Of a DNA stretch of 31,256 bases, positions 8,403 to 30,292 are shown in pieces. The stretch covers positions 1 through 31,256 of the forward strand of contig CAZJIR010000001.1 in the NCBI GenBank assembly GCA_964546095.1. Direction: 5' to 3'. Numbering within the stretch: position 1 is the first letter of the stretch; every line of letters starts with the position of its first letter. The notes below the pieces were generated by a model that worked only from the letters and a program-made list of their open reading frames with translations, had not been told where the DNA came from and ran no database searches. A program made the position numbers and the translations under genes. The DNA comes from an uncultured Pirellulales bacterium. GTDB taxonomy: Bacteria > Planctomycetota > Phycisphaerae > Sedimentisphaerales > Anaerobacaceae.

Positions 8403-9113
8403 CTATGGGCCGTAATCAATGCCTTTTATGCCTTTTATTGTCAGGTTTGCGTCCGGGAAACCATCACGAGCGGGTCGAATTTGTTCGGCTTTGAGAAAAC
8501 AGACCTGGCCGTCAACGAACAGAAAATTCCTGCAGCCCTGCCAGCACCACCATCCATTATCATCATCAATGGGTGAATGATTGCTGAGCCATTCGCCGAT
8601 AAGAATCTTTCCGGAGGGGTGAGCCACGTTCAGGCTTTGTTGCGGAATAGAGAGCTGAGGATTCTGGTAGGTGTCCGTCGGGCTGTTCATATCTTCAATC
8701 TGCTCCGGGCTGTGGTAAAAGGCCATCGAATAGGAGTAACTTGTGGATTCGTATTTTTCTTTGGAGACGCGGTCTTCCGGACAGAACAGAACCGAAGGAT
8801 TGTTTGCATCGATATTACCACCAAGATAAGGCTCTACATGCAATCGCCAGCCACGTCCCATCCACAGCCAGTAACCCGCCGGCAGAGGGTCCTGGGCGCA
8901 AGGATACGTGTTACCGTTTTCGTTAAGGTACATGTGTACAGCTAAATCGATTTGCTTTAGGTTGTGGGCACACTTCAGACGCTTCGTTAATATTCTTACC
9001 TTTCTGAGCGCCGGCATAAGAATAGAAAGCAAGAGAGCGATGATTGCTATGACAACCAGCAACTCGATGAGAGTGAAACCCGAACGGGGTGAATTTCGAC
9101 TTGTGAATTTCAT
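8403..9113 (-). CDS. Prepilin-type N-terminal cleavage/methylation protein, DUF1559-like
   Basis: [31 protein letters not shown], and C-terminal NFLFVDGQV (degenerate H-X9-DG motif). Confidence 0.9.
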
Positions 9114-14309: not shown

Positions 14310-16889
14310 TTATATCTTTTCGAATGTGAATTTGTGCCGGTCGGCGTTGATTTTTATCGCGTCGCCATCGGAGAATTTTCCAGCTAAAAGCTCAGAAGCC
14401 AAGGGATTTTCCAGCCGCTGCTGAATTGTCCTCTTCAAAGGGCGGGCGCCAAAGGCAGGGTCGTAGCCCTCATCCATAATCAGGTCACGGGCGCCGTTGG
14501 TAAATTCGAGCTTTATATCGCGATTGTTCAGACGTTCAGCTAAGTAATTCAGTTGAATATCGACAATCTGGCGGAGGTGCTCTTTGTCGAGCACGTGAAA
14601 GACGATTATCTCATCAACACGATTCAAAAACTCCGGCTTAAAAACCTGTTTCAAAGCATCTTTAACGTGAGCCTCGATTTCCCAGTCGGCACCGGACTCC
14701 TCGCTCAACTGCTGAATACGCTGGCTAGCAATATTGCTTGTCATAATGATAACGGTATTCTTGAAATCGACAGTCTTGCCTTTTCCGTCGGTCAACCGGC
14801 CGTCGTCGAAAACCTGCAGCAGCACATTGAATACATCGGGATGGGCCTTTTCAATCTCATCCAGTAAAATCACCGAATAGGGTTTACGCCGGACGGCTTC
14901 GGTTAATCGTCCGCCTTCTTCGTAGCCGACATAGCCCGGCGGCGAGCCGATAAGGCGGGAAACGGAGTGCGGCTCCATAAACTCGCTCATATCGATACGC
15001 ACCATAGCGTGCGGGTCGTTAAAAAGAAAATCTGCAAGGGCTTTGGAAAGTTCGGTCTTACCCACGCCGGTCGGCCCGAGGAACAGCAATGTCCCTATCG
15101 GCCGATTCGGGTCTCCTAATCCCGAACGACTTCTGCGAACCGCATTGCATAGTGCCGCGACCGCTTCGTCCTGCCCGACTACGCGCCGGCGAATCGCCTC
15201 TTCCATCTTCATTAATCTTTCACGTTCCCCGCTCAATAACTTTGCTACAGGAATTCCCGTCCATTTGGAGACAACACCGGCGATATGCTCTTCGGTCACT
15301 TCGTTTCTGATTATTGTTCTGTCGGATTTGGAAAGCTGGGCCTCTTTTTCTTCAAGCTCTTTTTGCAAATTCGTAATGGTCTCGTACTTCAGGCGTGCGG
15401 CCGTCTCCAAATCGCCTTTGCGCTGTGCATCTTCAAACTGGTTTTGAGCATTTTCAAGTTTCTCTTTCAGAGCTTTTATCTGGTCGATGTCACCTTTTTC
15501 ACCTTCCCACTGTTCCGTGAGTTTTTGGTCCTGCTTTTGTAATTGTATCAATTGTTTTTCGGTATTTTTCAATCTTTCTTTACTGGCATCATCGCTTTCT
15601 TTTCTCAGCGCTTCGCGCTCAATCTGAAGCTGAATAATCTTTCTGCGAATACCATCCAGCCCGGCCGGCAGCGAATCATTTTCAATCCTTAGTTTCGAAG
15701 CCGACTCGTCAATTAAATCTATTGCTTTATCCGGCAGCCACCGGTCCATTATGTATCGATTCGATAAAGTCGCAGCGGCGACAAGGGCCGAGTCTGTAAT
15801 CCGAACACCGTGATGAGTATCATACCGGCCTTTCAAGCCCCGAAGGATAGCTATGGTTTCTTCGACGCTCGGCGGGTCAATCAGAATCGGTTGAAAACGC
15901 CTTTCAAGTGCCGCATCTTTTTCCACATACTTTCGATATTCATCGATGGTAGTCGCGCCAATACAACGTAAATCACCACGTGCAAGTGACGGCTTTAACA
16001 GATTGCCCGCATCGACAGAACCTTCGGCCTTGCCCGCGCCTACGACGGTATGCAATTCATCGATGAATAATATTATTTCCCCTCCCGCAGCGATGACTTC
16101 TTTGAGGACAGCCTTTAGCCTGTCCTCGAATTCGCCTCTGAATTTTGTTCCTGCTATTAACGCTCCCATATCCAGAGCAACGACTCTTTTATTCTTCAAG
16201 CCTGTAGGGACATCACCTGTCACTATCCGTTGAGCAAGACCTTCGACAATCGCGGTTTTACCTACGCCCGGCTCGCCGATTAAAACGGGATTATTCTTCG
16301 TCCGGCGGTTCAGAACCTGCATACATCGCCGAATTTCCTCGTCTCTTCCGATGACCGGGTCAAGCTTTCCCTTACGAGCCATTTCCAAAAGGTCGATTCC
16401 GTAACGCTCCAGCACTTTGTATTTGTCCTCCGGATTCTGGTCTGTTATCTTTTCCGGCCCGCGAATCTCCTTTAAGGCGCTTTCAATCTGTTCGGGTTCG
16501 ATGGAGTTTAGTCGCAGAATTTCTCTGGCATCGCTTTGCACCGAGGCCAATGAAATAAACAGATGTTCCACACTCAAATATTCATCGCCCATTTTGTCCG
16601 CGCGATTTTGCGCATCGAGGACAACCTGGCTGAAGGCAGGGTCCGGCATAAGCTGATTACTACTTTTGCCCTGAGGCAATTTATCGAGTTCGCTCTCGGT
16701 CATCTGTTTAATTCGTGAGACATTAGCACCTATCTTTTTCAAAATCTCGACCGCAATGCCAGCCTCGTCGCTGCAAACAGCACTCAACAAATGCAATGGC
16801 GACATAACAGTATGCGATTTGGCCATCACAATCTGCTGAGCAGTTGCCAGAGCTTCCTGGGCTTTTAGTGTAAATTTGTCGAATTTCAT
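14310..16889 (-). CDS. clpB: ATP-dependent disaggregase ClpB
   Basis: Two AAA+ modules (GEPGVGKT and GPTGVGKT), a coiled-coil middle domain, and GARPLKR; start at MKFDKFT behind AAAGGA. Confidence 0.97.
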
Positions 16890-16948
16890 ATCTAATCCTT
16901 TTTCGCGCAAACGAAATTTCAATTACAGATACTCTAATACTCAATCCG

Positions 16949-17335: not shown

Positions 17336-17713
17336 TTAATTTTCCCGAGGTACCCAACCTGTGTTCATATTGTAAATGAAGTTACCAAAACGGGAACTGA
17401 TGTACACAGAATCTTCTTTGATTGCAAAAACGGCTCGCAATCCCCTCCTTGTCCTGATTTGAGCTGCTCCTGACTGGGACAGTGCATCGTGCAGGTCTGT
17501 TCCATATTCCAGAATCTGCCCATTCGAAAAGCCCGCTCTCCGCATCACTCTTACAACATCGTCGGAGCTTAATATAAGCACGTTCTGATTTCTAATGGGT
17601 ACGACCTGCAGACTTCTACTTACGCAACTAACCACGCCAAAAGCCAAAAAGGCCAGTAAAAATAATGCAATAATCACGCCAATATTTCTTGATTCACTAC
17701 TCATCGGCTTCAC
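17336..17713 (-). CDS. Small putative lipoprotein (candidate pilotin)
   Basis: 125 aa; hydrophobic signal ending VVSC; 30 nt downstream of the secretin stop. Confidence 0.7.
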   Translation of the reverse strand: MKPMSSESRNIGVIIALFLLAFLAFGVVSCVSRSLQVVPIRNQNVLILSSDDVVRVMRRAGFSNGQILEYGTDLHDALSQSGAAQIRTRRGLRAVFAIKEDSVYISSRFGNFIYNMNTGWVPREN

Positions 17714-17742: not shown

Positions 17743-20700
17743 TTATCTGATTGGCCGTGATAAACTCTCCCGAAGTCTCATTTTAAAATCTCTTTCAATC
17801 GGTCGTCCGGTTGGAGTCATTCTGCCGCCAGGAGCTATTCTGCTGCCCGGAACCATTCCACCTGGAGCCATTTCCATTTCGCCCCGAATCATCGGAGCCT
17901 GAGCTGTGGATGGTTGAGCGAATTCGACGGGTCGGCCTATTATATGTGCCGTAATGAAGACAGCAACTTCCCGGTCAGACTTGGTGTCGTTTTTATTACG
18001 GAATAGCGAGCCTATTATTGGAATACTACTAAAGCCAGGAACCCGTTGTTCGGATAAACGTGTTCGGTTCTCCGTCAGGCCAGCCACAGCAACCGTCCCG
18101 CCGTTTTTAATACTAACGGTGTTAGTAGCCGTTCGCCGTGTAACCACCGGAAGGTCGTTTCCTCTGCCGCGCGGTATGCTGTCACTGACTTCGATAGCCA
18201 AGTCCAGAGTAATATCATTATTGTCCCCTATATGGGGCGTGATACTCAGCTTGGTACCGGACTCAATTTTTTCCATTTCAGTTCGAGTATAGTAGATGGC
18301 ACCTATATCCGGTGAAGTCAGCATATAGTACTCTTCGGTCAAGACATTGATTTCGGCTCTCTTGCCGTCCTGGGCCATGACCTGGGGCTTTGCCAGTATT
18401 GTCGCCTCGTCATTCTCAGAGAGCAAGTTCAGCGCCATATTCAGCGAATCGGTGAATGTTGCATCAGGCGTATATCCGATTGTGATAGCCCCTGCTATCT
18501 TGCCACCTAAGTCGAGCAAATCCCCACCGCGTCCTTTCAGATCGTTACTAAAGCCTCCGGCACTGATAGTAGGCATACCCCACTCGACACCCATATTCAG
18601 CAGGTCGCCGCTTTCCATTACCACACTGCGCGCATCAAGCAAAACATGAGACGGCAGGTGGTCGATTTCCTTTAAGTCCGCTACGATACGCTCCATTAAA
18701 GCCGGCGGGGCAGTTATAACCACCGTGTAAGTATCGGCTCCAGGCCGTCCAACTTCGGCCTGAACGTAATCCGTGAAGGCAGAAGACAAAAGTCCCACCG
18801 CCGCTCTTGCACTAATGTAGCTCATTTTTACCCGGCGCGTTTCGCTCACTTTCGTGAACATTGTGCTTTTGACATCTCCGGAGCAAACCAGGTAATAATA
18901 GGGCGTCTCCTTCACAATATACGGAGTGCCGGCCAAGACAATATCAAGCGCTGTGTCTAACGGCATATCTTTAAGCTGACAGGTTACAGACCCGACGACC
19001 GTTTCGTCTGGAATAATGGTAATGTCCGCTGTCGTAGCGATGGCCTGGAGTGCATCAATTATATCCTCATCAACAAAGATATTACTAATAAGCGGTACTT
19101 CCGCAACGATTTCGCCTGATTCTACTACAGCGGCTGACTTCGGCTTACTCAAAAGTTCTTCCAGTCTTTTCAGTAGTTTATCCGTTTCAGACAATTCTTC
19201 TTCCGGCTCCGTGGTAGTTGGCCCAGTGGGAAATTCCCCGGGGAACGTAGAGTCTTCAACCGGCGGCAAAGTATCTATCGTAGGTTCAGCAGCCGGAGGT
19301 GTTGGCGATGGCCTATGCATAGAGCGATAATCCTCTTCCGTCATATCTTCCATCATATTTTGAGTAACGTTAGTATATGACTTATCCGGAAACTGAAAAC
19401 CTTCCATTGCCAGTGAAATCTCACCGCTCCAGTTGTAAGGCACTTCAACACTGAATTTACCCGAAGCGTCGGTGACGGTGGTACCTCCACCATTATTTGC
19501 GCGGACCTGTACACCTTTGATGCCGGTTCCACCAACCCGCACAACATCGGTTATAGTAAACATCTGTATTTTTGCAACAAAGTTCTGGTTTACAAGGTCT
19601 TTGGTAACAGGCGCAGCTTGTCGTTTATTAGTTGGCCTATAGTTATGGCCCACTTTTGTAGGTGTTATCGTACCGCGCCAACCGTAATCCACGGTCAGTT
19701 CATACCTGCCGTTAGTGTCGGTGTCGCTGGAACCTCCACCTGCATCTGCCACGATGAATACACCCTCGACAGGCTCGCCCTTTTCAGAACGTATAGTACC
19801 TGAAATGGTACGTTTTTCCAAAGCCGCAAAATAGTCCTGACTAACCTCAGGGCCTAAAAGCTCAGAGTACGTAATCTCAGGGGGGTTGAAGGTGTAACCG
19901 GCCTTTATCGGTTTCACTGTGCCGCTCCAGCCGTAAGGAATCTCTGCGGTATAAATACCATCGGCATTACTTATAACAGGTCTGCCCGGCAGGCCTCTCA
20001 ACGCTACACTAGCCATTCCAACAGAACCGCTAATTGTAAATGTAACCTGTTTTGCAGTGAATCTTTGATTCTTCTGGTCGGTAGTAATATTTGTGTACGG
20101 TTTAGAAGACGGTGTAAATTCATAACCGTCAATCATAGGCATGACTGTGCCAGTCCAGCCCCAGGGAACATTGACACTGAACATGCCGCCTGCACTGGTA
20201 ACCGGATTATCCGGCAAGCCATCTATTGTTACGCCTTCCATACCGACAGAGCCGGCAATGGTCAATATAATCGGTGTCGAAGTGTAATCCTGCTCGGTCT
20301 TGTCGCTTATCACTTTAGTGTAATTTATTGTAGCGGGGTCTTCGAATTTGTAACCCGGCTTTTCCGGTTTAACGGTTCCGCTCCAGCCCCAAGGGACATT
20401 AGCACTGTAATAGCCGTCCATATCGGTAAAAACAACATCTTCCGGAAAACCCTTCATTTCCACGTTGTCCAACCCAGCCGAGCCTGATATCATGAAAGTA
20501 ATTTCATTAGCAAAGTAATCCTGACTAGCATAAGCATTCATGACTTCAGAATATGGTGTTTCGGCTGGCTCAAAAGTGTAACCCTCTTTCACCGGCTTAA
20601 CCGTGCCGCTCCAGTTGTATTTAACAGCGGCACTGTAATTGCCATTCCTGTCTGTGGTCGGATTGTTCGGCAGGCCGTTCATTACCACCCCTTCTACGCC

Positions 20701-21300
20701 AACAGAACCGGATATTTCATAAGTAATTACGGCACCACTATAGTTCTGATTCGCCGTATCCCTTGTAACGGAAGTGTATGATATAGTGTTTGGTGTGAAC
20801 ATGTAACCCTCCTTTGACGGTATAACCGACCCAGCCCAATCGTAAGGTACATCGGCTTTGTAAGTACCGTTGCTACCTGTAATCGGGGCATCCGGCAGGC
20901 CTTCCATCATCACGCCTTCCATCGGCGCACCATCCATCCGTACCACACCTGAAACAGTAAATTGTCTTATCGTAGCAACGTAATCCTGATTAAGCTGGTT
21001 GCTTGTAACTTTTGGGTAATCTTTGTTAGGCGGATCGAAGGTATAACCCGGCATTTCAGGTGTAACTTTACCTCTCCAACCATAATCAACGGTAACGCTA
21101 TAAAAACCGCTCCCATCAGTAACAGGATTTTCCGGCAGACCTTTCATCGTCACGCCACCCAGTCCTGTAGAACCGGATATGGTGAAAGTTACTTTTGTCC
21201 CTTCGATTGCCTGCACGCTGACATTCATCGCGCATAACAAAACGACGCAGAGGACAATGATGCCGTCCGATAAAATTCTGCCGATATTTTTACTTGCCAT
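17743..21300 (-). CDS. Secretin (PilQ/GspD superfamily) with eight N-terminal Ig/carboxypeptidase-regulatory-like repeats
   Basis: C-terminal VLLDARSVV...MGVEWG, ILAKPQVMAQDGKRAEI, SGTKLSITPHI, VPGFSSIPIIGSLFR and EVAVFITAHII motifs; STN/N0 and N3-like domains; eight ~75-84-aa repeats. Confidence 0.9.
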   Translation of the reverse strand: MASKNIGRILSDGIIVLCVVLLCAMNVSVQAIEGTKVTFTISGSTGLGGVTMKGLPENPVTDGSGFYSVTVDYGWRGKVTPEMPGYTFDPPNKDYPKVTSNQLNQDYVATIRQFTVSGVVRMDGAPMEGVMMEGLPDAPITGSNGTYKADVPYDWAGSVIPSKEGYMFTPNTISYTSVTRDTANQNYSGAVITYEISGSVGVEGVVMNGLPNNPTTDRNGNYSAAVKYNWSGTVKPVKEGYTFEPAETPYSEVMNAYASQDYFANEITFMISGSAGLDNVEMKGFPEDVVFTDMDGYYSANVPWGWSGTVKPEKPGYKFEDPATINYTKVISDKTEQDYTSTPIILTIAGSVGMEGVTIDGLPDNPVTSAGGMFSVNVPWGWTGTVMPMIDGYEFTPSSKPYTNITTDQKNQRFTAKQVTFTISGSVGMASVALRGLPGRPVISNADGIYTAEIPYGWSGTVKPIKAGYTFNPPEITYSELLGPEVSQDYFAALEKRTISGTIRSEKGEPVEGVFIVADAGGGSSDTDTNGRYELTVDYGWRGTITPTKVGHNYRPTNKRQAAPVTKDLVNQNFVAKIQMFTITDVVRVGGTGIKGVQVRANNGGGTTVTDASGKFSVEVPYNWSGEISLAMEGFQFPDKSYTNVTQNMMEDMTEEDYRSMHRPSPTPPAAEPTIDTLPPVEDSTFPGEFPTGPTTTEPEEELSETDKLLKRLEELLSKPKSAAVVESGEIVAEVPLISNIFVDEDIIDALQAIATTADITIIPDETVVGSVTCQLKDMPLDTALDIVLAGTPYIVKETPYYYLVCSGDVKSTMFTKVSETRRVKMSYISARAAVGLLSSAFTDYVQAEVGRPGADTYTVVITAPPALMERIVADLKEIDHLPSHVLLDARSVVMESGDLLNMGVEWGMPTISAGGFSNDLKGRGGDLLDLGGKIAGAITIGYTPDATFTDSLNMALNLLSENDEATILAKPQVMAQDGKRAEINVLTEEYYMLTSPDIGAIYYTRTEMEKIESGTKLSITPHIGDNNDITLDLAIEVSDSIPRGRGNDLPVVTRRTATNTVSIKNGGTVAVAGLTENRTRLSEQRVPGFSSIPIIGSLFRNKNDTKSDREVAVFITAHIIGRPVEFAQPSTAQAPMIRGEMEMAPGGMVPGSRIAPGGRMTPTGRPIERDFKMRLRESLSRPIR

Positions 21301-21411: not shown

Positions 21412-23073
21412 TTAATACCAATTAATAGGTATAGGTTCTTCACCCCCTCCAATAACCTCAATTTCCCTCCGTTCTCCTCCCTGAACCCGGACCCGTATAG
21501 CTAACTGTTTCATCGCCTCCTGATCAGGAGCATATTCCAAAACCGCCGCAAGACGGTATATACCTTCAGGCAAATTAGAAAAATCGATAACTTCCGAGAA
21601 ATCCCTCGTTGTCAAAGGCAGCATCAGACCAGTCTTTCTGCTGTTTAGCGATACCCTCTTCCTGATAGCGAGTGTTGTATCAACCACGGCGGCTCTGCAT
21701 CTTACGGGAGTAAAATGTATATTTCCGAAATTGCCGAACCTTGCAACAACATAATATTCGGACCCCTCTTTATAGGCAACGCTAAGCCTCATAGCGGAAG
21801 CAAATGGTTCAATACTGATATCCTCATTCAAAACGCAAATATTTCCGATCGTTATGCCAGCCGACTGACCGTCCGGATAAGTGCCGGCCAAACCGATAAG
21901 CGAATAATAACAGGGATGCACATCAATATTTCCCGGCATCGTCGCAACAATGCGTATGCTCCTCTGTGCATTACTGGCAAGTGTGAATCTATCCGGCTCC
22001 ACCCTCAGCCATGTGGAGCAGTCTAAATCATTCCCCTTCAAATCGCCAAAAGCAATGCCCTTTAGACGAGGTGGCAATGCCAAAGCCGTCTGGACATTTA
22101 CCGTCTCATCCGAAGCATTATAGACCCTTATCGCGTCCGTCCGTACAGCACCCGGCCGACCGCTTATCATAAGATCGCTTGGGTACAGATCAAGAGTCGC
22201 ATCGCTAGCCACCTTCGTAACACTCGGGTCACTTGCAAATGTTATCTCCTGCGTAGCTCTCTTAGCACGCCTGCCATCAACATAGAGTACTCCGGATATT
22301 CTGTACTTGCCCGCCGGCAAAGGCCGACTAATGTTACTTTTCAACTTTAATTTGGCTCCTGGAATGATTCCAGTACCTCCAAATTCTGCGGTAGTAATTG
22401 CCCGCCAGTGCCCATCCAAGAAACCTTTAACTACCGCAAAGCTCTTAAGGCGGGAACGGGTCCCCCCATTATTATCAATTTGCATTGTGACATTCGTTGT
22501 CGCGGGATTTCCCTGCATGGGTCGAACAAACTCCAGTCCCATATCGCCAAGTTCCACTTTATGGCGCATTGGCCGACCCTGTACCTCAATGAGCACAGGA
22601 ATTAAAAAACGCACGATAACAAAAACATTTCCTGTAACGTCCGGTCTTGGTCTGACAGTGGCAACAATCGTAGCACTGTAAAATCCACGTGTACGGCGCG
22701 GCACTCTTATATTCACCGCCACTCTATCCATCCCAAAAGGAACTACATCAATACTTTCACGTCCGAGGCTTATCCAGTCTTTGCATGAAGAAAGCTTCGA
22801 CCTATCAATAACATCGTTGGGCTCAATAATTCGCCATTGGCCGTCTTCCTCCTGGGACAGCTCGGTCACCCTCAAATCTACCGTCAGGACCTCGTTCGGG
22901 TCGATACTTTGAAGGTCCAAGACGGTCTTTATCGTCCGGCCCGGCAGGGACGTAAGATCCATCCTCATCGGCTGTATTATAAACTGGCCAAACGCCGGCC
23001 TTCCATTAATAAAAAAGCTCGACACAATTACAGCAATGAAAACCAAATGATTCGTTATATTGCGCTTTCTCAC
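21412..23073 (-). CDS. Periplasmic pilus-assembly chaperone-like protein, two tandem modules (PapD/EcpB/DUF916-like)
   Basis: Signal peptide; internal duplication: IQPMRMDL..G / LYPSDLMI..G, CKDWISL / CSTWLRV, GFYSATI / CYYSLI, DNNGGTR / GNFGNIH. Confidence 0.65.
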   Translation of the reverse strand: MRKRNITNHLVFIAVIVSSFFINGRPAFGQFIIQPMRMDLTSLPGRTIKTVLDLQSIDPNEVLTVDLRVTELSQEEDGQWRIIEPNDVIDRSKLSSCKDWISLGRESIDVVPFGMDRVAVNIRVPRRTRGFYSATIVATVRPRPDVTGNVFVIVRFLIPVLIEVQGRPMRHKVELGDMGLEFVRPMQGNPATTNVTMQIDNNGGTRSRLKSFAVVKGFLDGHWRAITTAEFGGTGIIPGAKLKLKSNISRPLPAGKYRISGVLYVDGRRAKRATQEITFASDPSVTKVASDATLDLYPSDLMISGRPGAVRTDAIRVYNASDETVNVQTALALPPRLKGIAFGDLKGNDLDCSTWLRVEPDRFTLASNAQRSIRIVATMPGNIDVHPCYYSLIGLAGTYPDGQSAGITIGNICVLNEDISIEPFASAMRLSVAYKEGSEYYVVARFGNFGNIHFTPVRCRAAVVDTTLAIRKRVSLNSRKTGLMLPLTTRDFSEVIDFSNLPEGIYRLAAVLEYAPDQEAMKQLAIRVRVQGGERREIEVIGGGEEPIPINWY

Positions 23074-23368
23074 TTTTTTAATCTCCCAAAAACTCGCATG
23101 AACCGCTTACTCATCATTAATAAGCCGGATACATCTTAAAGATAACCCTAAAGTACATTTTTGAGTCTATTATTGCGTCTCCGTGATAAATTACCGTGAT
23201 TTCCATCCAATAATATTGAGGCTCTTACTTTTTCGGCCATTTAACTCCCTTACTTTTTATAATTCCTTGTGAAATCCCCATAACGACGCTATTCAGCAAT
23301 TCAATCCATGAAAAGCGGCTTTCCACTTCCTCACTATATAGACTTGTGTCTATAATAAATCATTACCA

Positions 23369-23397
23369 AGTTTATCATTTTTTTTCTCAAATGTCAA
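23369..23397 (-). promoter_or_regulatory. Strong sigma70 promoter for the chaperone-secretin-lipoprotein operon
   Basis: TTGACA-N17-TAAACT with a TGn extension. Confidence 0.7.
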
Positions 23398-23437
23398 GTC
23401 TAAATTGCCTAATCCACCCATTTTCACGAAAATGTTT

Positions 23438-23480
23438 ATAAAAAATAAGGAGGGCGGATTCAATATCCGTCCCTCCTTAT
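23438..23480 (-). terminator. Intrinsic terminator after the 173-aa pilin-like gene
   Basis: 15-bp stem with one bulge (ATAAGGAGGGACGGAT / ATCCGCCCTCCTTAT) followed by a T-run on the minus strand. Confidence 0.85.
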
Positions 23481-23598
23481 AAACATCCTTTTTTCACCAG
23501 CCTCCAGTAGAAGATTTCCGGACGTTTGTATAACCAATCGTCCTTTTTTAAGAGAGTGATTAAGCTACGCTCCTTTACTACTAAGGCCGACTCGCGAC

Positions 23599-24120
23599 TT
23601 ACTCAGTATCCGGTGGCTTCACAGTAATCGTGAGCACGCCGACTTTAATCTCGTCGCCGGGTGAACCGGAGTTCCAAAGCTCTGTATTCCAGGCATCAAT
23701 GCAAATTTCCAGCTCATGGTAAGCACCATCGCCGGGGATGGTAGATTCGCCGACCCAGTACACTTTCGTGTCTTTCAGAACTGAAACATCGCCAGCACCT
23801 TTGTCTAAATTGGCGCCAATAATTGCCGCGAAGTTTGCTCTTACTTCAAACTTTACACAGCCTGTGTAGCACGGGAAACCCGATTGTTCGATTTCTACGC
23901 AGTCAACCTGTTTGAGCACAATTTTCTTATCTCCGCAATCTTTCAACTCTACATAATGGCCCACGTCCATAAACACAGGTATATCGCATAAATCGAGTGC
24001 TTTGTAGGTCCAGGGCCAATCGCCATCGTGCTTTATTGGATTAATGGCGCCTGCCTGTACCGTGACCGCCAGCAGAGCTACAACTGCAATTGCAATAACA
24101 CATTTTTTTAACATTTTCAT
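23599..24120 (-). CDS. Secreted beta-rich protein, candidate major pilin
   Basis: Sec signal (VQA/GA); alternating-hydrophobic N-terminal strand DIPVFMDVGHYVEL; C-terminal strand VGVLTITVKP; 6 Cys in the mature part. Confidence 0.6.
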   Translation of the reverse strand: MKMLKKCVIAIAVVALLAVTVQAGAINPIKHDGDWPWTYKALDLCDIPVFMDVGHYVELKDCGDKKIVLKQVDCVEIEQSGFPCYTGCVKFEVRANFAAIIGANLDKGAGDVSVLKDTKVYWVGESTIPGDGAYHELEICIDAWNTELWNSGSPGDEIKVGVLTITVKPPDTE

Positions 24121-24566
24121 TTCCCTTTCTTAACCCTCGCTCCTTTAAGGGCCAATATTGGCCTGTGGAGCTAATCAATACATTTTTTCACTCAGACCCA
24201 ATAGATATCTGAGCTAAACGATCCGCGGGCTAAAAACCTCTTTGTCCGACTCTGGCGACTATGCCCGCATTACTGTCTTCCTGAGTCGGGGCCCAAAAGC
24301 ATAACGATTCTCAATCTGGAATCTTCATCCCAAGCTATTTAATCGTCTTTCCGCCTCAAGACCGAGCCTGCTTCTTCAGGCGGCCCGCAAAGCATCCTTT
24401 AGCTTGCGAGTCATTACACTTTTAACTACCTCACACCTCCTTTCTCCCTACCCTTATTAAGGAAGGGGTCGTCTATTTTGAACAACATATTTCCACAAAC
24501 CCTGGGCATTTATAATCTTTCATTATTGCGTTGTAGAAACTTTTTATTTTCTCTCTAAATCTCCAA

Positions 24567-25052
24567 TCAAAAAGATGACGGTATTATCGTAAATGTAATA
24601 GTTCCTGAAAATTTTCCCGCCGGGTCACGTAAGAAACGCTCCACCCGAAAATCTAAATTAATGTCATGCGATCCGTTTTCAGGATTAGATATAATCACCG
24701 GCTTTGTCATCGGGACAAATCCTTGTGTAGTCGGAGCCTTGATGGATATACGCTCAAGCGGTATTGTTTTGTTACTTCTTGTGTGCTTCAATTCCGACAT
24801 AGATGCCACTATCGGTCCGTGCAGACAATTAGAATCCACCTTCAGAGTTAATGACGCTGATGCCGAGTATAATATACTCGGTAATAAAGCTTTTCCCGAC
24901 ATAATTGAACCTTTTGGGAATTTAGCCCTTTCAAATTCGAGTCTATTCGCCACAGGTATAATCTTGACAAAAGGTTCATCGTCGGCCTTGGCAATTCCAG
25001 CCGCCCCTAACAATATCAATGCTACTAAATAAGTCGTTACTAATTTCATCAT
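24567..25052 (-). CDS. Secreted protein, candidate minor pilin (spore-coat-U/CFA-like)
   Basis: Sec signal (AKA); LKVDSN motif; C-terminal PAGKFSGTITFTI strand typical of fimbrial subunits. Confidence 0.65.
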   Translation of the reverse strand: MMKLVTTYLVALILLGAAGIAKADDEPFVKIIPVANRLEFERAKFPKGSIMSGKALLPSILYSASASLTLKVDSNCLHGPIVASMSELKHTRSNKTIPLERISIKAPTTQGFVPMTKPVIISNPENGSHDINLDFRVERFLRDPAGKFSGTITFTIIPSSF

Positions 25053-25410
25053 TGTTCTCTCCCCCGAAAACTATCAGATTACAACACTCTATCGCTAACG
25101 ACTAACAGCGAACTAAATATGTTACCAGTCCATTGGATTTCAAACGCTTCACTTTATTCCTAATTATCACGGCATCAATCAATGCCGTTGCCAGTGATAA
25201 GCAACACAGCTTATCTCTGTTACTCAGCTAAGCTATTCCAGACTGGCCGAAAGTGCGATTATAAGAAGGGATTCAAATAATGTTTTTCATCTCTCCTCAC
25301 CATCACTCTCCTCATCTCCTGACCAGCACGAAAAAAACAGTACCGGACAAGCAAAGCATTCGATATAAATAAGTTGAATATTCTCAACTTAATGCCTTGC
25401 TACTTTCCAG

Positions 25411-25527
25411 AATTTACCAGTTTTTTTTCTTCTTGTCAATAGCTAAATTTTAAAATTCACCTTCTTAACTTTTTTTAACGCCCACGGTAACTTTCATTAT
25501 TTTACCCAATCACCCATGCGATGTCAA
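25411..25527 (-). promoter_or_regulatory. Tandem sigma70 promoters upstream of the 161-aa gene
   Basis: TTGACA-N17-TAAAAT (25527-25499) and TTGACA-N17-TAAATT with TGn (25439-25411). Confidence 0.7.
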
Positions 25528-26131
25528 TGGTAATTTTATCTATTTTCTCTGGCTTTACTATATTCTCTGTTTTTTCGGACTCTATTTTTATCAAATCAAG
25601 CCTTATTAAGTAAAACACCCAACCCATAAATTCATGTAACGCCTTATATTACAACAAGATACAGGCCAAAATGGCGAATATAGAAATTTTTTCGGACAAT
25701 GAAATAACTTGCAAAGTTTCACAATATCTATAAACAAACAACAAAAAAAATTTGTTCATTTATCTCTATTTTTTGCAGATTTTGAAGCACTTTTCGATAA
25801 ATCTTTAGTGTTTCCCGACCCAAGATTTATCTCTGTGTGACATTATTTTTTAACGAATTTTTTACATGTTTTTCATCCACTCCGAATAACTTGCCGTATA
25901 TCTTTTGCTTCAATAAAACATCAACAAAGGTTTTGAGCTGTCTAAGTGCATCCGTGAGCAAATTGACTTTATTCTTTTTCTACGCCAATATAATTTTCCC
26001 GAGGAAAGATAAAATCACTATAAAGCTTTAATTTTTACTCTCAAACTAATCAGCTTGTAATTCGCAAGAAGGAAACATGATACATATCGAGATATAAAAA
26101 CAAGTGCTTTCTATGACCATAGTATCACATC

Positions 26132-26392: not shown

Positions 26393-26466
26393 GCGCCCGT
26401 AGCTCAGTTGGACAGAGCAACGGATTTCTAATCCGTAGGTCGCAGGTTCGAGTCCTGCCGGGCGTG
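26393..26466 (+). tRNA. tRNA-Arg (TCT)
   Basis: Acceptor stem GCGCCCG/CGGGCGT; anticodon stem ACGGA/TCCGT with loop TTTCTAA; GGTTCGAGTCC T-arm; CCA not encoded. Confidence 0.97.
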
Positions 26467-26470
26467 GTAT

Positions 26471-28012
26471 ATGAGTCGGGAAATTATCGCCATACTGGAT
26501 TTTGGCAGTCAGTACGGTCAACTGATAGCGAGGAGGATTCGAGAACAAAACGTATACTCCCAAATTTTTCCTGCGCATACCACGGCAGAAGAACTGTCAA
26601 GATTGGGCATTAAGGGATTGATACTGTCCGGCGGGCCTGCAAGCGTCTATGACAAAAACGCACCAAAATGTGATAAGGAAATCTTCGAACTGGATGTGCC
26701 GATTCTGGGCATTTGCTATGGGATGCAGTTAGGCTGTCAGGTTTTGGGGGCAAAGATTGCAGCCGCTCAAAGACATGAATATGGACGAACAACTCTGGCT
26801 ATCCTTGAAAAATACGATTTGTTTGCAAATATGTCGGATTCAATCACGGCCTGGGCCAGCCATGGCGACCAAATCGATAAGCTCAGCAGCGATTTTGTTA
26901 AATTAGCAACCACCGATACATGTCCTTATGCGGCGGTAAGGCACAAGAAAAAGAAGTTTTTCGGTGTCCAGTTTCACCCTGAAGTTTCACATACACCTCA
27001 AGGCTCAATGATTTTAAAGAACTTCCTGTACGATATCTGCGGCTGTAGCGGCGACTGGAAAATGAGCGATTTCGTTAGTGAAACTGTAGAAATAGTCCGT
27101 CAACAAGCCGGTAACGCCAAGGTAATATGCGGGCTGAGCGGCGGAGTTGATTCGTCGGTTGTCGCGTCGCTGGTTCATAAGGCGATAGGCGACCAGCTTG
27201 TTTGTATTTTTGTCGATAACGGCCTGCTGCGAAATAACGAATGTGAAAATGTCGTGTCAACCTTCCGTAATCATTTTCATATGGATTTGCATGTTGTCGA
27301 TTGGTCCAGGCAGTTCCTTGAGGGCCTGGCCGGAGTAACCGACCCTCAGCAAAAACGCAAAATAATCGGCTCTGAATTCATTAATGCTTTTGAATCGGAA
27401 GCGAAAAAAAATCCGAACGCCAGGTTTCTTGCTCAGGGAACGCTGTATCCCGATGTTATCGAATCAGGCTCAAAAGACGGCAACCCCGCAGCGAATATCA
27501 AGCTGCATCACAACGTAGGGGGGCTGCCAGCCGAGATGGGATTCGAGCTGATTGAGCCTTTGCGGGATTTGTTTAAGGATGAGGTGAGGGTAGTCGGCGA
27601 GTATCTTGGATTGCCTGAGGATATCGTCTGGCGGCATCCTTTCCCGGGGCCGGGCCTTGCAGTTAGGATAATTGGAGAGGTTACACCGCAAAGACTGGAA
27701 ATTCTCCGGGCCTCTGATGAAATCTTAATAGATGAAATAAAATCGGCAGGTCTATATAGGAAGATATCGCAGGCGCTGACGGTGCTTATGCCTGTCTTGA
27801 CAGTCGGTGTGATGGGCGATGAACGAAGCTACGAAAATGTTATTGCCGTTCGGTCAGTTGATACTGTCGATTTTATGACTGCTGATTTTTCGCGAATCCC
27901 ATACGAGGTGCTTGGCATCATATCCAACCGGATTATAAACGAGGTCAGAGGCGTTAACCGGGTCGTTTATGATATATCCAGCAAACCCCCGGCGACAATC
28001 GAATGGGAATAG
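26471..28012 (+). CDS. guaA: GMP synthase (glutamine-hydrolysing)
   Basis: [51 protein letters not shown] and KPPATIEWE motifs. Confidence 0.98.
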
Positions 28013-28030: not shown

Positions 28031-29083
28031 CTATTGTTCGCCTTGCTCGAATAGCTCTGGCTGGTCGGAGGGGTGTTTCTTTTGATGGACTTTTAGGCCT
28101 AAATGCTCGCAGGCTTGTTTGGTAACTTCTCTGCCGCGTTTTGTTCGGCGCAGAAAACCAATCTGTAAAAGATACGGCTCGACGACGTCCTCCAGTGTAT
28201 CTCTTTCTTCGCCGAGTGTGGCTGCAATGGCCTCGATGCCGGCGGGGCCGCCATCATAAACATTTGCCAGCGCTCTCAGAACCGCCCTATCCAATTCATC
28301 CAGACCCAGTGCATCAATTTGCTCCATCTTCAGCGCGCTTTCGACAATCCCGGCACTGAGGACTCCTGAGCCTTTTACCTGTGCGTAGTCACGGACGCGT
28401 TTTAACAATCGATTTGCAACTCTCGGCGTCCCACGGGAGCGGTTCGCAATCAGTTCAAGCGTTCCATCTTCGCATTGCAGACCCAATAGCTCAGCGGACC
28501 TGTCCAGAATATCCGTCAGCTCGGCGCTGCTGTAAAAATCCAGATGATACAGCATACCAAATCGACTGCGGAGAGGAGCGCTTAACAGCCCGGCTCGTGT
28601 AGTGGCACCAATCAACGTAAAACGCTTCAGCGGGAAATTTATCGTCTTTGCGTGCAAACCGCTATCCACGGTGAAATCGACTTTGAAATCCTCCATGGCC
28701 GGGTAGATAAATTCTTCAACAAGGGTGCTTAGTCTGTGGACTTCATCGATGAATAGCACGTCGCCGGTGCTAATATTGCTTAAGAGGCCCATCACATCGC
28801 CTACTTTTGCAAGGGCCGGGCCCGATGAGCAGCGAATTCTCGCATCCATCTCATTCGCCACGACATGAGCCAGCGTAGTTTTGCCGAGTCCCGGCGGGCC
28901 GTAAAACAAGATATGCTCCAAAGGCTCAGACCTTTGTTTAGCCGCTTCTATGGCAATCGCAAGTTTTTCTCTGACATTGCATTGGCCTACACATTCGGCC
29001 AGATATTTGGGCCTGAGGGATATGTTAAAGCTCTCTTCCTGCTCACTCAAAGACCGCCCGCTTATGATTCTGCCTATTGCCAT
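28031..29083 (-). CDS. ruvB: Holliday junction branch migration helicase RuvB
   Basis: LRPKYL, GPPGLGKTTLA, FIDEVHRL, SRGTPRVANRLL and EPYLLQ motifs. Confidence 0.97.
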   Translation of the reverse strand: MAIGRIISGRSLSEQEESFNISLRPKYLAECVGQCNVREKLAIAIEAAKQRSEPLEHILFYGPPGLGKTTLAHVVANEMDARIRCSSGPALAKVGDVMGLLSNISTGDVLFIDEVHRLSTLVEEFIYPAMEDFKVDFTVDSGLHAKTINFPLKRFTLIGATTRAGLLSAPLRSRFGMLYHLDFYSSAELTDILDRSAELLGLQCEDGTLELIANRSRGTPRVANRLLKRVRDYAQVKGSGVLSAGIVESALKMEQIDALGLDELDRAVLRALANVYDGGPAGIEAIAATLGEERDTLEDVVEPYLLQIGFLRRTKRGREVTKQACEHLGLKVHQKKHPSDQPELFEQGEQ

Positions 29084-29133
29084 TTTCGATTGACTATTTT
29101 TTAGTTTCTTTATCTATATACACTGCTTTTTAA

Positions 29134-29763
29134 TCAGACCTCTACTCCCTGCTTTAGTCTGTATATTAAAGGCACAAGCGCCTCGGCTGAGTTTATATTG
29201 GGGTGCTTGCGACACGCCAACTCAACCAGCTCCATTGCTTCGGCTCGTCTTTCACCCCAAGCGATAAGAATCTCCAGCGCCTCAATCTGGAACGGTTTGA
29301 ATCCGGCCTCTGTCCGCTTAGCTGGTTCGGCCCCGGCGGCAAAAGACTGCAACTTGCCGCGTAATTCTGCAATAATTTGCTGAGCCATCCTTTTGCCTAT
29401 CGAAGGCAGCGACATCAATGTCTTGTCGTCAGCACTCTCAATAGCTGCCGCAATTGTGGCTATCGGGATGCTTAAGGACCGCAATCCCTTTTTTATGCCC
29501 ATACCTTTGACACTGATATACTTGGTAAAAAAATCTCTCTCGCCCACATTTAAGAAGCCGACCATTCTTGGGATGAGATTTCCGCCGCCAAGCGTGCCCT
29601 CATAATACTCCATAGTACAAAGAGAAACGTCCGAGCCGATTCGGTCAGATAACAAATTCACACAATAGCTCGGTAACATAACCTCATAACCGACTGCTCC
29701 GACCTGCACCAGGCAGCAGTCGCTATCAAGCTTTACAAGTTTTCCTTCAATGCCGGCTATCAT
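29134..29763 (-). CDS. ruvA: Holliday junction branch migration protein RuvA
   Basis: N-terminal OB fold (VGAVGYEV), helix-hairpin-helix motifs VKGMGIK and LPSIGKRMAQ; located between ruvC and ruvB. Confidence 0.93.
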   Translation of the reverse strand: MIAGIEGKLVKLDSDCCLVQVGAVGYEVMLPSYCVNLLSDRIGSDVSLCTMEYYEGTLGGGNLIPRMVGFLNVGERDFFTKYISVKGMGIKKGLRSLSIPIATIAAAIESADDKTLMSLPSIGKRMAQQIIAELRGKLQSFAAGAEPAKRTEAGFKPFQIEALEILIAWGERRAEAMELVELACRKHPNINSAEALVPLIYRLKQGVEV

Positions 29764-29806
29764 ATCGATTTATTATTGATTATTTTCTATTTATTATTTC
29801 AATGGC

Positions 29807-30292
29807 TCAGATAAAAACACTATTTATCGAATTCGCACAGCACAGTGCCGTTGCTATGGCATCAGCTACATCATTCGGCTCAGGTATTTGAGGCAGGGAT
29901 AAAATGGTTTGAATAGTCTTTTGCACCTGCTCCTTCGAGGCCCTGCCGTTGCCGGTAATCGATTTTTTTATACGTGTTGCGCTGAAGCTCCTGACTTCAA
30001 CCGCCGCCTGAACGCACCTCTGCAGTATAACACCTCTTGCGTGTCCCATCAATATCGCCGTCTTCGGATGAGCATAATGCGAGTACAACTCCTCCACCGC
30101 CACAACATCCGGTCCGAAACTTTCCAGAAGCGATTGAGTATCTTCGGCAATTCTATTGAGTTTTTGCTCTATCGCTGAGCCGGTATCTGTGCGAATAACA
30201 CCTGCTTCAATCAACGTCTCTCTATCCTGGCCTGTTTCCAAGCAAGCATATCCGCAGACTTGTAAACCCGGGTCGATACCGAGTATCCTCAT
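29807..30292 (-). CDS. ruvC: Crossover junction endodeoxyribonuclease RuvC
   Basis: ILGIDPG, VAVEE, GHARGV, GNGRASKEQV and DVADAIATA motifs. Confidence 0.96.
   Translation of the reverse strand: MRILGIDPGLQVCGYACLETGQDRETLIEAGVIRTDTGSAIEQKLNRIAEDTQSLLESFGPDVVAVEELYSHYAHPKTAILMGHARGVILQRCVQAAVEVRSFSATRIKKSITGNGRASKEQVQKTIQTILSLPQIPEPNDVADAIATALCCANSINSVFI

Follow-up and report, generated by a model that had tools for sequence, protein, structure and literature searches.

A secretin with a fixed array of eight predicted β-sandwich repeats, encoded in a conserved cassette of secreted proteins in uncultured Planctomycetota

The DNA analyzed here, referred to below as the window, is a stretch of 31,256 nucleotides (nt) from contig CAZJIR010000001.1 of an uncultured Pirellulales bacterium (GenBank assembly GCA_964546095.1; GTDB lineage Planctomycetota, Phycisphaerae, Sedimentisphaerales, Anaerobacaceae). 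On its reverse strand lies the gene of a 1185-amino-acid (aa) secretin that carries eight tandem repeats ahead of a compact secretin core. The gene belongs to a small cassette, in which one to three small secreted proteins (sA and sB in the window) are followed by a 553-aa secreted protein that we call C553, the secretin and a small lipoprotein. The coordinates of these features, and the subdivision of the secretin on which the following analysis is based, are collected in Table 1.

Table 1. Features of the secretin cassette in the window, with aa positions of the secretin where a range is given
Feature	Position (nt)	Strand	Basis
Secretin gene, 1185 aa	17743..21300	-	Open reading frame (ORF) list; Pfam Secretin 1.9e-38; Protein Data Bank (PDB) sequence matches
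Signal peptide, aa 1-31 (MASKNIGRILSDGIIVLCVVLLCAMNVSVQA)	21208..21300	-	Read by eye; putative cleavage after VQA
R1, aa 35-109, distal tip of mature protein, best-conserved repeat	20974..21198	-	
R2, aa 110-189, long form with extra A-B loop, least conserved	20734..20973	-	
R3, aa 190-265	20506..20733	-	
R4, aa 266-341	20278..20505	-	
R5, aa 342-416	20053..20277	-	
R6, aa 417-492	19825..20052	-	
R7, aa 493-576, long form, with a CarboxypepD_reg / SusC N-terminal-extension-like match below threshold	19573..19824	-	
R8, aa 577-652, most divergent unit, adjoins linker, faint CooC_C match at aa 583-621	19345..19572	-	
Pro/Glu/Thr-rich linker and short amphipathic helix, aa 653-735	19096..19344	-	
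N0/STN domain, aa 736-812	18865..19095	-	Pfam STN, 4ar0, HofQ collinearity
Single N3-like (Secretin_N) domain, aa 813-890	18631..18864	-	Weak in window; PF03958 in orthologs
Secretin channel domain, aa 891-1125	17926..18630	-	PF00263, GspD and PilQ structures
Variable Pro/Gly tail (aa 1126-1168), then conserved 17-aa C-terminal peptide (RDFKMRLRESLSRPIR)	17746..17925	-	
Lipoprotein, 125 aa, 29 nt downstream of secretin; candidate pilotin	17336..17713	-	
C553, 553-aa secreted protein, four predicted β-sandwich domains; candidate periplasmic partner/chaperone	21412..23073	-	
sB, 173-aa secreted Cys-rich protein; candidate cargo/subunit	23599..24120	-	
Conserved structured RNA in the sA-sB spacer, within the cassette transcript	24121..24566	-	DNA conservation, covariation
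sA, 161-aa secreted protein with C-terminal motif AG.Y.GTl.FTI.P; candidate cargo/subunit	24567..25052	-	

The protein is a member of the secretin superfamily. The Pfam Secretin model (PF00263) matches aa 960-1121 with 132.2 bits against a cut-off of 27.5 (E 1.9e-38), and aa 855-1123 match GspD and PilQ in the PDB, where 23 secretin chains were hit. Upstream of the channel, a putative N0 domain is indicated by an STN match at aa 762-798 (E 2e-4; 21.5 bits, under the curated cut-off of 28.4), by similarity to the PilQ N0 structure 4ar0 in the PDB sequence search (E 0.0017) and by STN matches in the orthologs. The Secretin_N match that defines the N3-like domain is weak in the window protein (aa 821-880, E 0.17 in Pfam); PF03958 is found without being flagged as weak in orthologs (locus L085 and proteins P0075, P0078 and P0108). 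Judged from its sequence, the core appears PilQ/HofQ-like in organization, with a probable N0, one N3-like domain and the secretin domain. In NCBIfam, the C-terminal 450 residues are equally close to the GspD, PilQ and HofQ models, scoring 101-137 bits against cut-offs of 284-554.

The regions that flank this core are of two kinds. Between the last repeat and N0 lies a linker whose first 53 residues (aa 653-705) include 11 Pro, 10 Glu and 9 Thr; together with the helix that follows it, it ranges from 67 to 114 aa among 52 orthologs, with 23-24% identity. The order of repeats, Pro/Glu-rich linker, N0/STN, single N3-like domain and secretin barrel is the one that a first-pass annotation of this DNA had proposed. 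At the C terminus, a Pro/Gly tail of 15-60 aa (18% identity among orthologs) leads into the last 17 residues, which are 65% identical. The signal-peptide region is conserved like the channel core (65% identity), and its long n-region, MARKxIGRILSGG, is retained even in orthologs that are 40% identical. Conservation this strong is unusual for a cleaved signal peptide; the protein may be targeted by a special route, or the region may stay uncleaved as an anchor. We judged an uncleaved N-terminal membrane anchor to be less likely, because the hydrophobic stretch is only ~13 residues long and precedes a VQA-type cleavage motif.

The repeat array occupies aa 35-652 (nt 19345-21198) and consists of eight units of 75-84 aa with pairwise identities of 27-53%, R7 and R8 being the most divergent. 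Both the units and their motif had been recognized in the first-pass annotation, which placed them at 19345-21190; the start stands and the end is refined to 21198. Our consensus, xxxTFTISGSVGxEGVxMxGLPxxPVTDxxGxYSAxVPYGWSGTVxPxKxGYxFxPxxKxYTxVTxDxxNQDYxA, agrees with the motif given there. Five columns (V, G, W, G and G) are invariant across the eight repeats, and the loop behind the first strand is 5-7 residues longer in R2, R7 and R8. Tandem Repeats Finder detected no DNA-level tandem array with a period of 225-250 nt; the copies have therefore diverged at the DNA level, in line with the old duplication that had been suggested.

Sequence comparisons place the repeats near, and short of, known families. 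When the repeats were searched singly against Pfam, only R7 and R8 matched CarboxypepD_reg/CarbopepD_reg_2 (best E 1.7e-6, below the gathering score), and R1-R6 gave no match at E≤10. CarboxypepD_reg (PF13620) reaches 30.5 bits at aa 498-560 in R7, under its cut-off of 32.3, and the SusC N-terminal extension model TIGR04056 matches the same repeat at aa 497-538. A profile of the repeat drew only insignificant matches from PDB sequences (E≥0.35; the best were 6ytc and 9hfj at E 0.35-1.1). We also considered similarity to CooC_C, the C-terminal family of ushers, as evidence for an usher-like character and rejected it as a generic, summed property of the repeat family, because far higher CooC_C scores are obtained with multi-repeat proteins that are unrelated to the secretin; one of these, 1590 aa long, reaches 73 bits although no single stretch passes.

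The fold is clearer from structure prediction. An AlphaFold2 (AF2) model of aa 32-655, built with 64 homologs, has a mean predicted local distance difference test score (pLDDT) of 84, contains no helix and shows about seven strands per unit. Its top Foldseek matches in the PDB are B. anthracis TIE, the SdrD B domains and the CnaB domains of Gram-positive pilins; further matches include the NOMO/BOS sandwich, the transthyretin (TTR) domain of teneurin and FimD usher chains. Foldseek assigns probabilities of 0.99-1.0 to the CnaB-type and TTR-type domains, and the template modeling (TM) scores are low because the AF2 model is a string of eight domains. In the model, the repeat fold is a seven-stranded CnaB/prealbumin (transthyretin-like) β-sandwich, in the clan of CarboxypepD_reg. 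The earlier label of 'immunoglobulin-like' is thus apt for a β-sandwich in general and too loose as a class, since CnaB/prealbumin-type matches rank best.

The number of repeats is fixed. We counted units in three survey sets of complete relatives (114 + 76 + 16) that overlap, in the first of them with a hidden Markov model (HMM) built solely from the window's eight repeats. A database search with the full protein drew more than 1000 relatives (E≤1e-5). Exactly eight units, a recurrence beyond chance, are present in 118 of the 120 listed homologs, 114 of those 118 being N-terminally complete; the two homologs with seven units begin inside a repeat and are therefore N-terminally truncated fragments, and one other match is a non-secretin with 19 units. 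All 76 full-length genes from 80 loci retrieved out of species-representative genomes (38-72% identity) have eight units that span 603-630 aa, and all 16 complete repeat-bearing secretins among the 50%-identity cluster representatives likewise have eight. A survey of repeat number across homologs, for which the first-pass annotation had called, thus returns eight in every complete relative examined. The organisms named among the best 120 relatives (44-72% identity) are metagenome-assembled genomes (MAGs) labeled Planctomycetes/Planctomycetota, Phycisphaerae, Phycisphaerales or Sedimentisphaerales. An alignment-based scan with one genome per species found a relative in 116 genomes, all of them MAGs labeled Planctomycetota and mostly Phycisphaerae or Sedimentisphaerales.

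The repeats are also individually conserved. For every repeat of the window, the highest score falls on the ortholog repeat of equal rank in the array, the diagonal being on top in each row, and the eight-fold duplication is therefore older than the split of these lineages. Identity to the window protein is 51-63% for R1-R8 and 65-66% for N0, N3 and the channel. Among the 76 orthologs, repeat identity follows core identity, the two being 56 and 66% in the close set, 47 and 55% in the middle set, and 42 and 46% in the far set. R1 is always the best-conserved repeat, with 49% identity in the far set compared to 43% for N0 and 41% for N3, and R2 is the least conserved. Spacers of the adhesin type vary in number and have homogenized copies. 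The array is opposite to them in both number and conservation, and it therefore very probably makes position-specific contacts. The invariant count, the positional orthology and the near-core conservation all speak in favor of an ordered, specific role over that of a floppy spacer.

The same repeat is found outside secretins. Among the 150 best cluster representatives, 102 are non-secretins with 4-34 copies and lengths of up to 4339 aa, which bears out the earlier remark that repeats of this type normally occur in large secreted proteins. Of the giant repeat proteins among the non-secretin hits (P0061, P0241-P0389), some bear a C-terminal sorting domain of the type IX secretion system. Across the ~78-aa repeat, no Pfam family reaches its cut-off via a specific per-repeat match, CarboxypepD_reg staying sub-threshold; CooC_C and NOMO1-like pass their cut-offs in the giant repeat proteins only as summed scores, without any one stretch passing. 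A closely related N0-N3-secretin module (40-47% identity) is embedded in proteins of 1700-2800 aa (P0274, P0279, P0286 and P0377), whose N-termini (MSLLENLF..ERLGWMLVHFLWQ) we take to resemble those of BlaR1/M56-type sensor-peptidases. Short secretins of the same clade (480-600 aa) have a coiled-coil-like N-terminus instead.

The secretin gene also has constant neighbors. The succession of C553, secretin and lipoprotein is the same over ~80 loci, wherever contigs cover those positions, with C553 always directly upstream; the lipoprotein gene adjoins the secretin gene in nearly all loci whose contig extends past the secretin 3' end. One to three small signal-peptide proteins precede C553 in most loci for which the upstream flank is available. 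Most loci in which BLAST finds neither sA nor sB still show small signal-peptide ORFs at this place (L036 and L062 have no convincing one), and these replacement ORFs are often tandem duplicates with a similar alternating-hydrophobic C-terminal strand. As a group, the small proteins have this C-terminal strand in common, undergo tandem duplication and evolve at a higher rate than the machinery. Homologs of sB lie upstream of C553 in most loci, sometimes in duplicate, and five Cys of the mature part are invariant. The small genes occur in three tandem copies in L040, two in L049 and three in L072, a pattern as for diversifying surface subunits.

By contrast, the flanks of the cassette are wholly different among loci and comprise clpB and guaA, GGDEF and kinase genes, heparinase, glycine-cleavage genes or DNA ligase. 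One Sedimentisphaerales MAG contains two complete paralogous cassettes (L001/L088; P0059 and P0095; JW837_05855 and JW837_03670). For eight loci, which represent six contexts, Pfam gene tables were available, and none of these loci shows an ATPase, platform or pilin gene of type II secretion systems (T2SS), type IV pili (T4P), Tad or type III secretion systems (T3SS) at a distance of up to 10 kb.

Among the partner proteins, the lipoprotein has a Cys30 that never varies and whose surroundings resemble a lipobox (window, VVSC; consensus, VGC), and it has no match in Pfam (all alignment members), in NCBIfam or in a PDB profile search. Together with the conserved C-terminal 17-mer of the secretin, it forms a candidate pilotin/S-domain-like pair. 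The AF2 model of C553 (pLDDT 77) is all-β with four sandwiches, and Foldseek matches it to ASH/PapD-like domains and to E. faecium WxLIP with TM scores of 0.60-0.63 on the target. The WxLIP_PGBD model is weakly matched by 44 of 58 C553 homologs, and a C553 profile retrieved nothing meaningful from PDB sequences. WxLIP has been proposed to stabilize a small partner protein through β-hairpin insertion (PMC10599100). In profile-profile comparisons, sA and sB, sA and C553, and the repeat and C553 came out as unrelated (best probability 8.9%). The family searches with the small proteins and the lipoprotein gave a single isolated DUF4402 match (E 0.0078, in one of 30 members), and we did not take it as evidence.

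Known secretins share parts of this layout and differ in others. PilQ has N-terminal AMIN domains, whose count is 0-3 among proteobacteria, and a disordered linker before N0 (PMC7545093). The window protein likewise has N-terminal accessory domains, a disordered linker, a putative N0, one N3-like domain and the secretin domain in the same order, its repeats occupying the position held by the AMIN domains. Its aa 711-1124 align with the structures of PilQ from M. xanthus and V. cholerae, and aa 739-1124 are collinear with the PilQ model. Unlike PilQ, it has no AMIN match and carries eight fixed sandwiches in their stead; its TIGR02515 score of 135.9 stays under the cut-off of 284.35, and neither the window nor the eight loci with Pfam tables offer a pilM/N/O/P or pilin context. 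Similarly, aa 737-1121 are collinear with positions 27-417 of 419 in the model of HofQ (N0 + N1/N3 + secretin), representing the HofQ/ComE-type DNA-uptake secretins, whereas its score of 101 falls short of the cut-off of 554, no N-terminal array is present in HofQ and the gene context differs. With GspD, it shares the secretin domain, and the downstream lipoprotein and conserved C-terminal peptide recall the pilotin/S-domain arrangement (for pilotin-secretin biology, see PMC3276575). It differs from GspD in its TIGR02517 score (136.8 against a cut-off of 351.35), in having one N3-like domain rather than N1-N2-N3, and in that no gsp genes lie nearby in the window or in the Pfam-tabled loci.

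Systems without a secretin offer partial parallels. Like the chaperone-usher systems (FimD/PapC/CooC), the cassette combines small secreted proteins, a PapD/ASH-like, putatively periplasmic protein and a pore with extra β-sandwiches, and has no ATPase; FimD chains are among the Foldseek matches of the repeats, and faint CooC_C and TcfC signals appear in Pfam. Unlike them, its pore is a secretin, no cassette protein matches Usher (PF00577) or PapD (PF00345/PF02753), C553 has four domains instead of two and resembles the chaperones at the level of fold only, and the role of the small proteins as pilins is unproven. Tandem CnaB stalks (TIE, SdrD B domains and Gram-positive pilins) are similarly built of head-to-tail sandwiches with almost no inter-domain linker; they differ in being Gram-positive surface proteins with variable repeat numbers, and their sequence identity to the repeats is 8-14%. 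In TonB-dependent transporters of the SusC/FecA type, a CarboxypepD_reg-like sandwich also lies N-terminal to STN on the periplasmic side of an outer-membrane protein; there, one such domain precedes a plug and a 22-strand barrel, whereas here eight precede a secretin.

Taken together, these observations lead us to favor a reading, to which we assign a probability of roughly 40%, in which the eight-domain arrays form a crown that replaces the inner-membrane platform and docks the cassette's own partners, with the secretin being piloted by the lipoprotein. To our knowledge, the N-terminal domains of all solved secretins are periplasmic, from which we infer that the array is periplasmic as well. 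In this mechanism, Sec would export the secretin, and the downstream lipoprotein would pilot it to the outer membrane via the conserved C-terminal peptide, where it would assemble as the usual 12-15-mer. The eight-domain arms, ~30 nm long if typical sandwich-domain dimensions apply, would hang in the periplasm under the N0 ring on flexible linkers and would serve as an ordered crown of fixed length in place of the missing inner-membrane platform. The crown would reach into the periplasm and dock C553 loaded with the small β-rich proteins, the distal R1 being the likeliest contact site. The small proteins would then pass through the pore, with folding or strand exchange, and not an ATPase, as the driving force. 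Usher-like docking by the repeats, which the first-pass annotation suggested, is possible, and its further proposals, a periplasmic cage and a reach across a wide periplasm, are likewise conjectural. A more radical version, which we consider doubtful, is a novel, motor-less 'chaperone-secretin' pathway, in which C553 would strand-complement the small proteins, the arms would act like the N- and C-terminal docking domains of an usher, and fibers or proteins would be assembled or released through the pore with no part played by type-IV-filament or T3SS machinery.

Several points weigh against the platform-replacing crown. Its location, the geometry of the oligomer, its cargo and what it binds are all deduced, and sA and sB match no pilin, cargo or other family in sequence, profile, Pfam, NCBIfam or PDB searches. 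In the AF2 model of the repeats, the predicted TM score is only 0.37, meaning that the domain folds are confident and the mutual arrangement of the repeats is not. The linker is flexible and unconserved, which speaks against a rigid body running on into the channel, and the long conduit envisaged in the first-pass annotation, if continuous and rigid, is hard to reconcile with 67-114 residues of ~23% conservation between R8 and N0. Genes for inner-membrane partners could lie in other parts of these genomes. Every secretin known to us works with an inner-membrane machine, and a motor-less one would be unprecedented. Finally, the window encodes, at 8403-9113 on the reverse strand and thus ~8 kb away from the cassette, a DUF1559 protein whose N terminus has a methylation motif of the prepilin type. 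Of the eight Pfam-tabled loci, L086 alone has such a gene, a weak N_methyl match ~9 kb upstream. DUF1559-type genes with methylation motifs are very numerous in Planctomycetota.

The same evidence can be read in other ways. The array could be an envelope anchor or ruler that binds peptidoglycan, a wall polymer or the inner membrane and sets the position and height of the channel without handling substrate, an alternative that we regard as rather improbable. An invariant copy number would suit a ruler, and the conserved aromatic residues (the invariant Trp and several Tyr) are compatible with glycan binding; the CarboxypepD_reg class, moreover, is often grouped with carbohydrate-binding-like folds. 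The repeats are also placed like AMIN domains, at the N terminus and with a disordered linker before N0 (PMC7545093). Yet the AMIN count varies from 0 to 3 in proteobacterial PilQ (PMC7545093), whereas here the number is fixed and each repeat individualized, Pfam finds no sequence match to a known peptidoglycan-binding domain in the repeats, and a mere spacer would not require near-core conservation. It is unlikely, in our view, that the protein is an ordinary secretin of the T2SS/T4P type whose partners are encoded elsewhere, with the repeats a lineage-specific decoration (suited, for example, to a wide periplasm) and the neighboring genes syntenic or accessory. The core runs collinear with PilQ/HofQ, its scores in the GspD and PilQ models are similar, a putative N0, normally the contact to an inner-membrane partner, is kept, databases annotate orthologs as GspD, and the gene context is known within 10 kb only, all of which would fit. 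However, the scores are far under the GspD, PilQ and HofQ equivalog cut-offs, C553, secretin and lipoprotein, joined by the small genes in most loci, stay together while their surroundings change completely, and two complete cassettes in one MAG are what would be expected of a self-contained module.

Display of the array at the cell surface, threaded through the channel or otherwise exposed as an adhesin-like stalk in the manner of the giant repeat proteins with a type IX sorting domain, seems very unlikely to us. Outside these secretins, the repeat is typical of secreted or surface proteins of very large size, and a linker of up to 114 residues (67 at the least) is long enough in principle to cross the channel; against this, the N-terminal domains are periplasmic in the solved secretins, adhesin stalks vary in copy number and this array never does, and there is no terminal 'head' domain, because R1 begins right behind the signal peptide. 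An assembly artifact, namely a repeat-protein gene mis-fused to a secretin gene, had been named in the first-pass annotation as one of the findings that would refute its reading. The source is a metagenome of low coverage, with a contig word depth of 1-6 in a salt-marsh run, and this single DNA run is too shallow to inform; no RNA-seq runs containing the locus were found. But the same full-length architecture recurs in more than 190 independent assemblies, and mis-assembly is therefore excluded for practical purposes. The architecture is also present in MAG records deposited as whole chromosomes, CP070675.1 (L042) and CP070782.1 (L062), and the contigs are without joints or loose ends.

Our literature searches brought up no account of this secretin architecture or of the cassette, and orthologs are labeled 'hypothetical' or 'GspD' in databases. 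The ~78-aa repeat is effectively an undescribed repeat family, and the cassette may belong to an undescribed export or fiber-assembly system. In all systems with a characterized secretin that we know of (T2SS, T4P, Tad, T3SS and filamentous-phage export), the secretin is the outer-membrane terminus of a large machine that includes an ATPase and an inner-membrane platform; the family described here travels instead with a compact set of uncharacterized secreted proteins. If the array does replace the platform, this would be a new way of using a secretin and would provide a handle on the surface structures of abundant, mostly uncultured sediment bacteria. Read conservatively, it is the clearest case known to us of a secretin whose N terminus is extended by a 'ruler-like' array of fixed length.

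The conservation of the cassette extends to its non-coding DNA, the spacers being more conserved at the DNA level than the small genes that they separate. The spacer between sA and sB measures 446 nt and was aligned over 50 loci with 66-86% DNA identity. It encodes an RNA of ~430 nt with ten helices and 59 pairs, in which 96.7% of cells are paired, compared to 34-52% in slid controls. Compensatory changes occur in 15 pairs, against 6.2 ± 1.7 in shuffles, none of 500 of which reaches 15. Its invariant stretches include GGAGAAAGGAGGTGTGAGGTAGT, and it has no match in Rfam even at E≤1. This RNA may be a stabilizing or processing leader of the sB mRNA, as for an abundant structural subunit. DNA-level conservation also marks two further non-coding stretches that differ from the sA-sB element: the sB-C553 spacer (23074-23598) in 43 loci, where it is repeated after each sB copy in two-copy loci such as L013 and L014, and a stretch upstream of sA (~25227-25660) in 26 loci. 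A scan for promoters and terminators performed no better than on its own shuffles.

In the window, the cassette is bordered by clpB (14310-16922) on one side and by guaA (26471-28012) and ruvB, ruvA and ruvC (28031-30292) on the other. In closer relatives, the cassette always lies between guaA/ruvABC and clpB; in distant ones, the adjacency to clpB is gone and the cassette is intact. The 1.3 kb upstream of sA are AT-rich (GC content 0.34), contain no long ORF and end at a tRNA gene (26393-26466, forward strand) directly upstream of guaA. Rfam RF00005 identifies this gene and a second tRNA gene at 1391-1464 on the same strand, with 70-74 bits.

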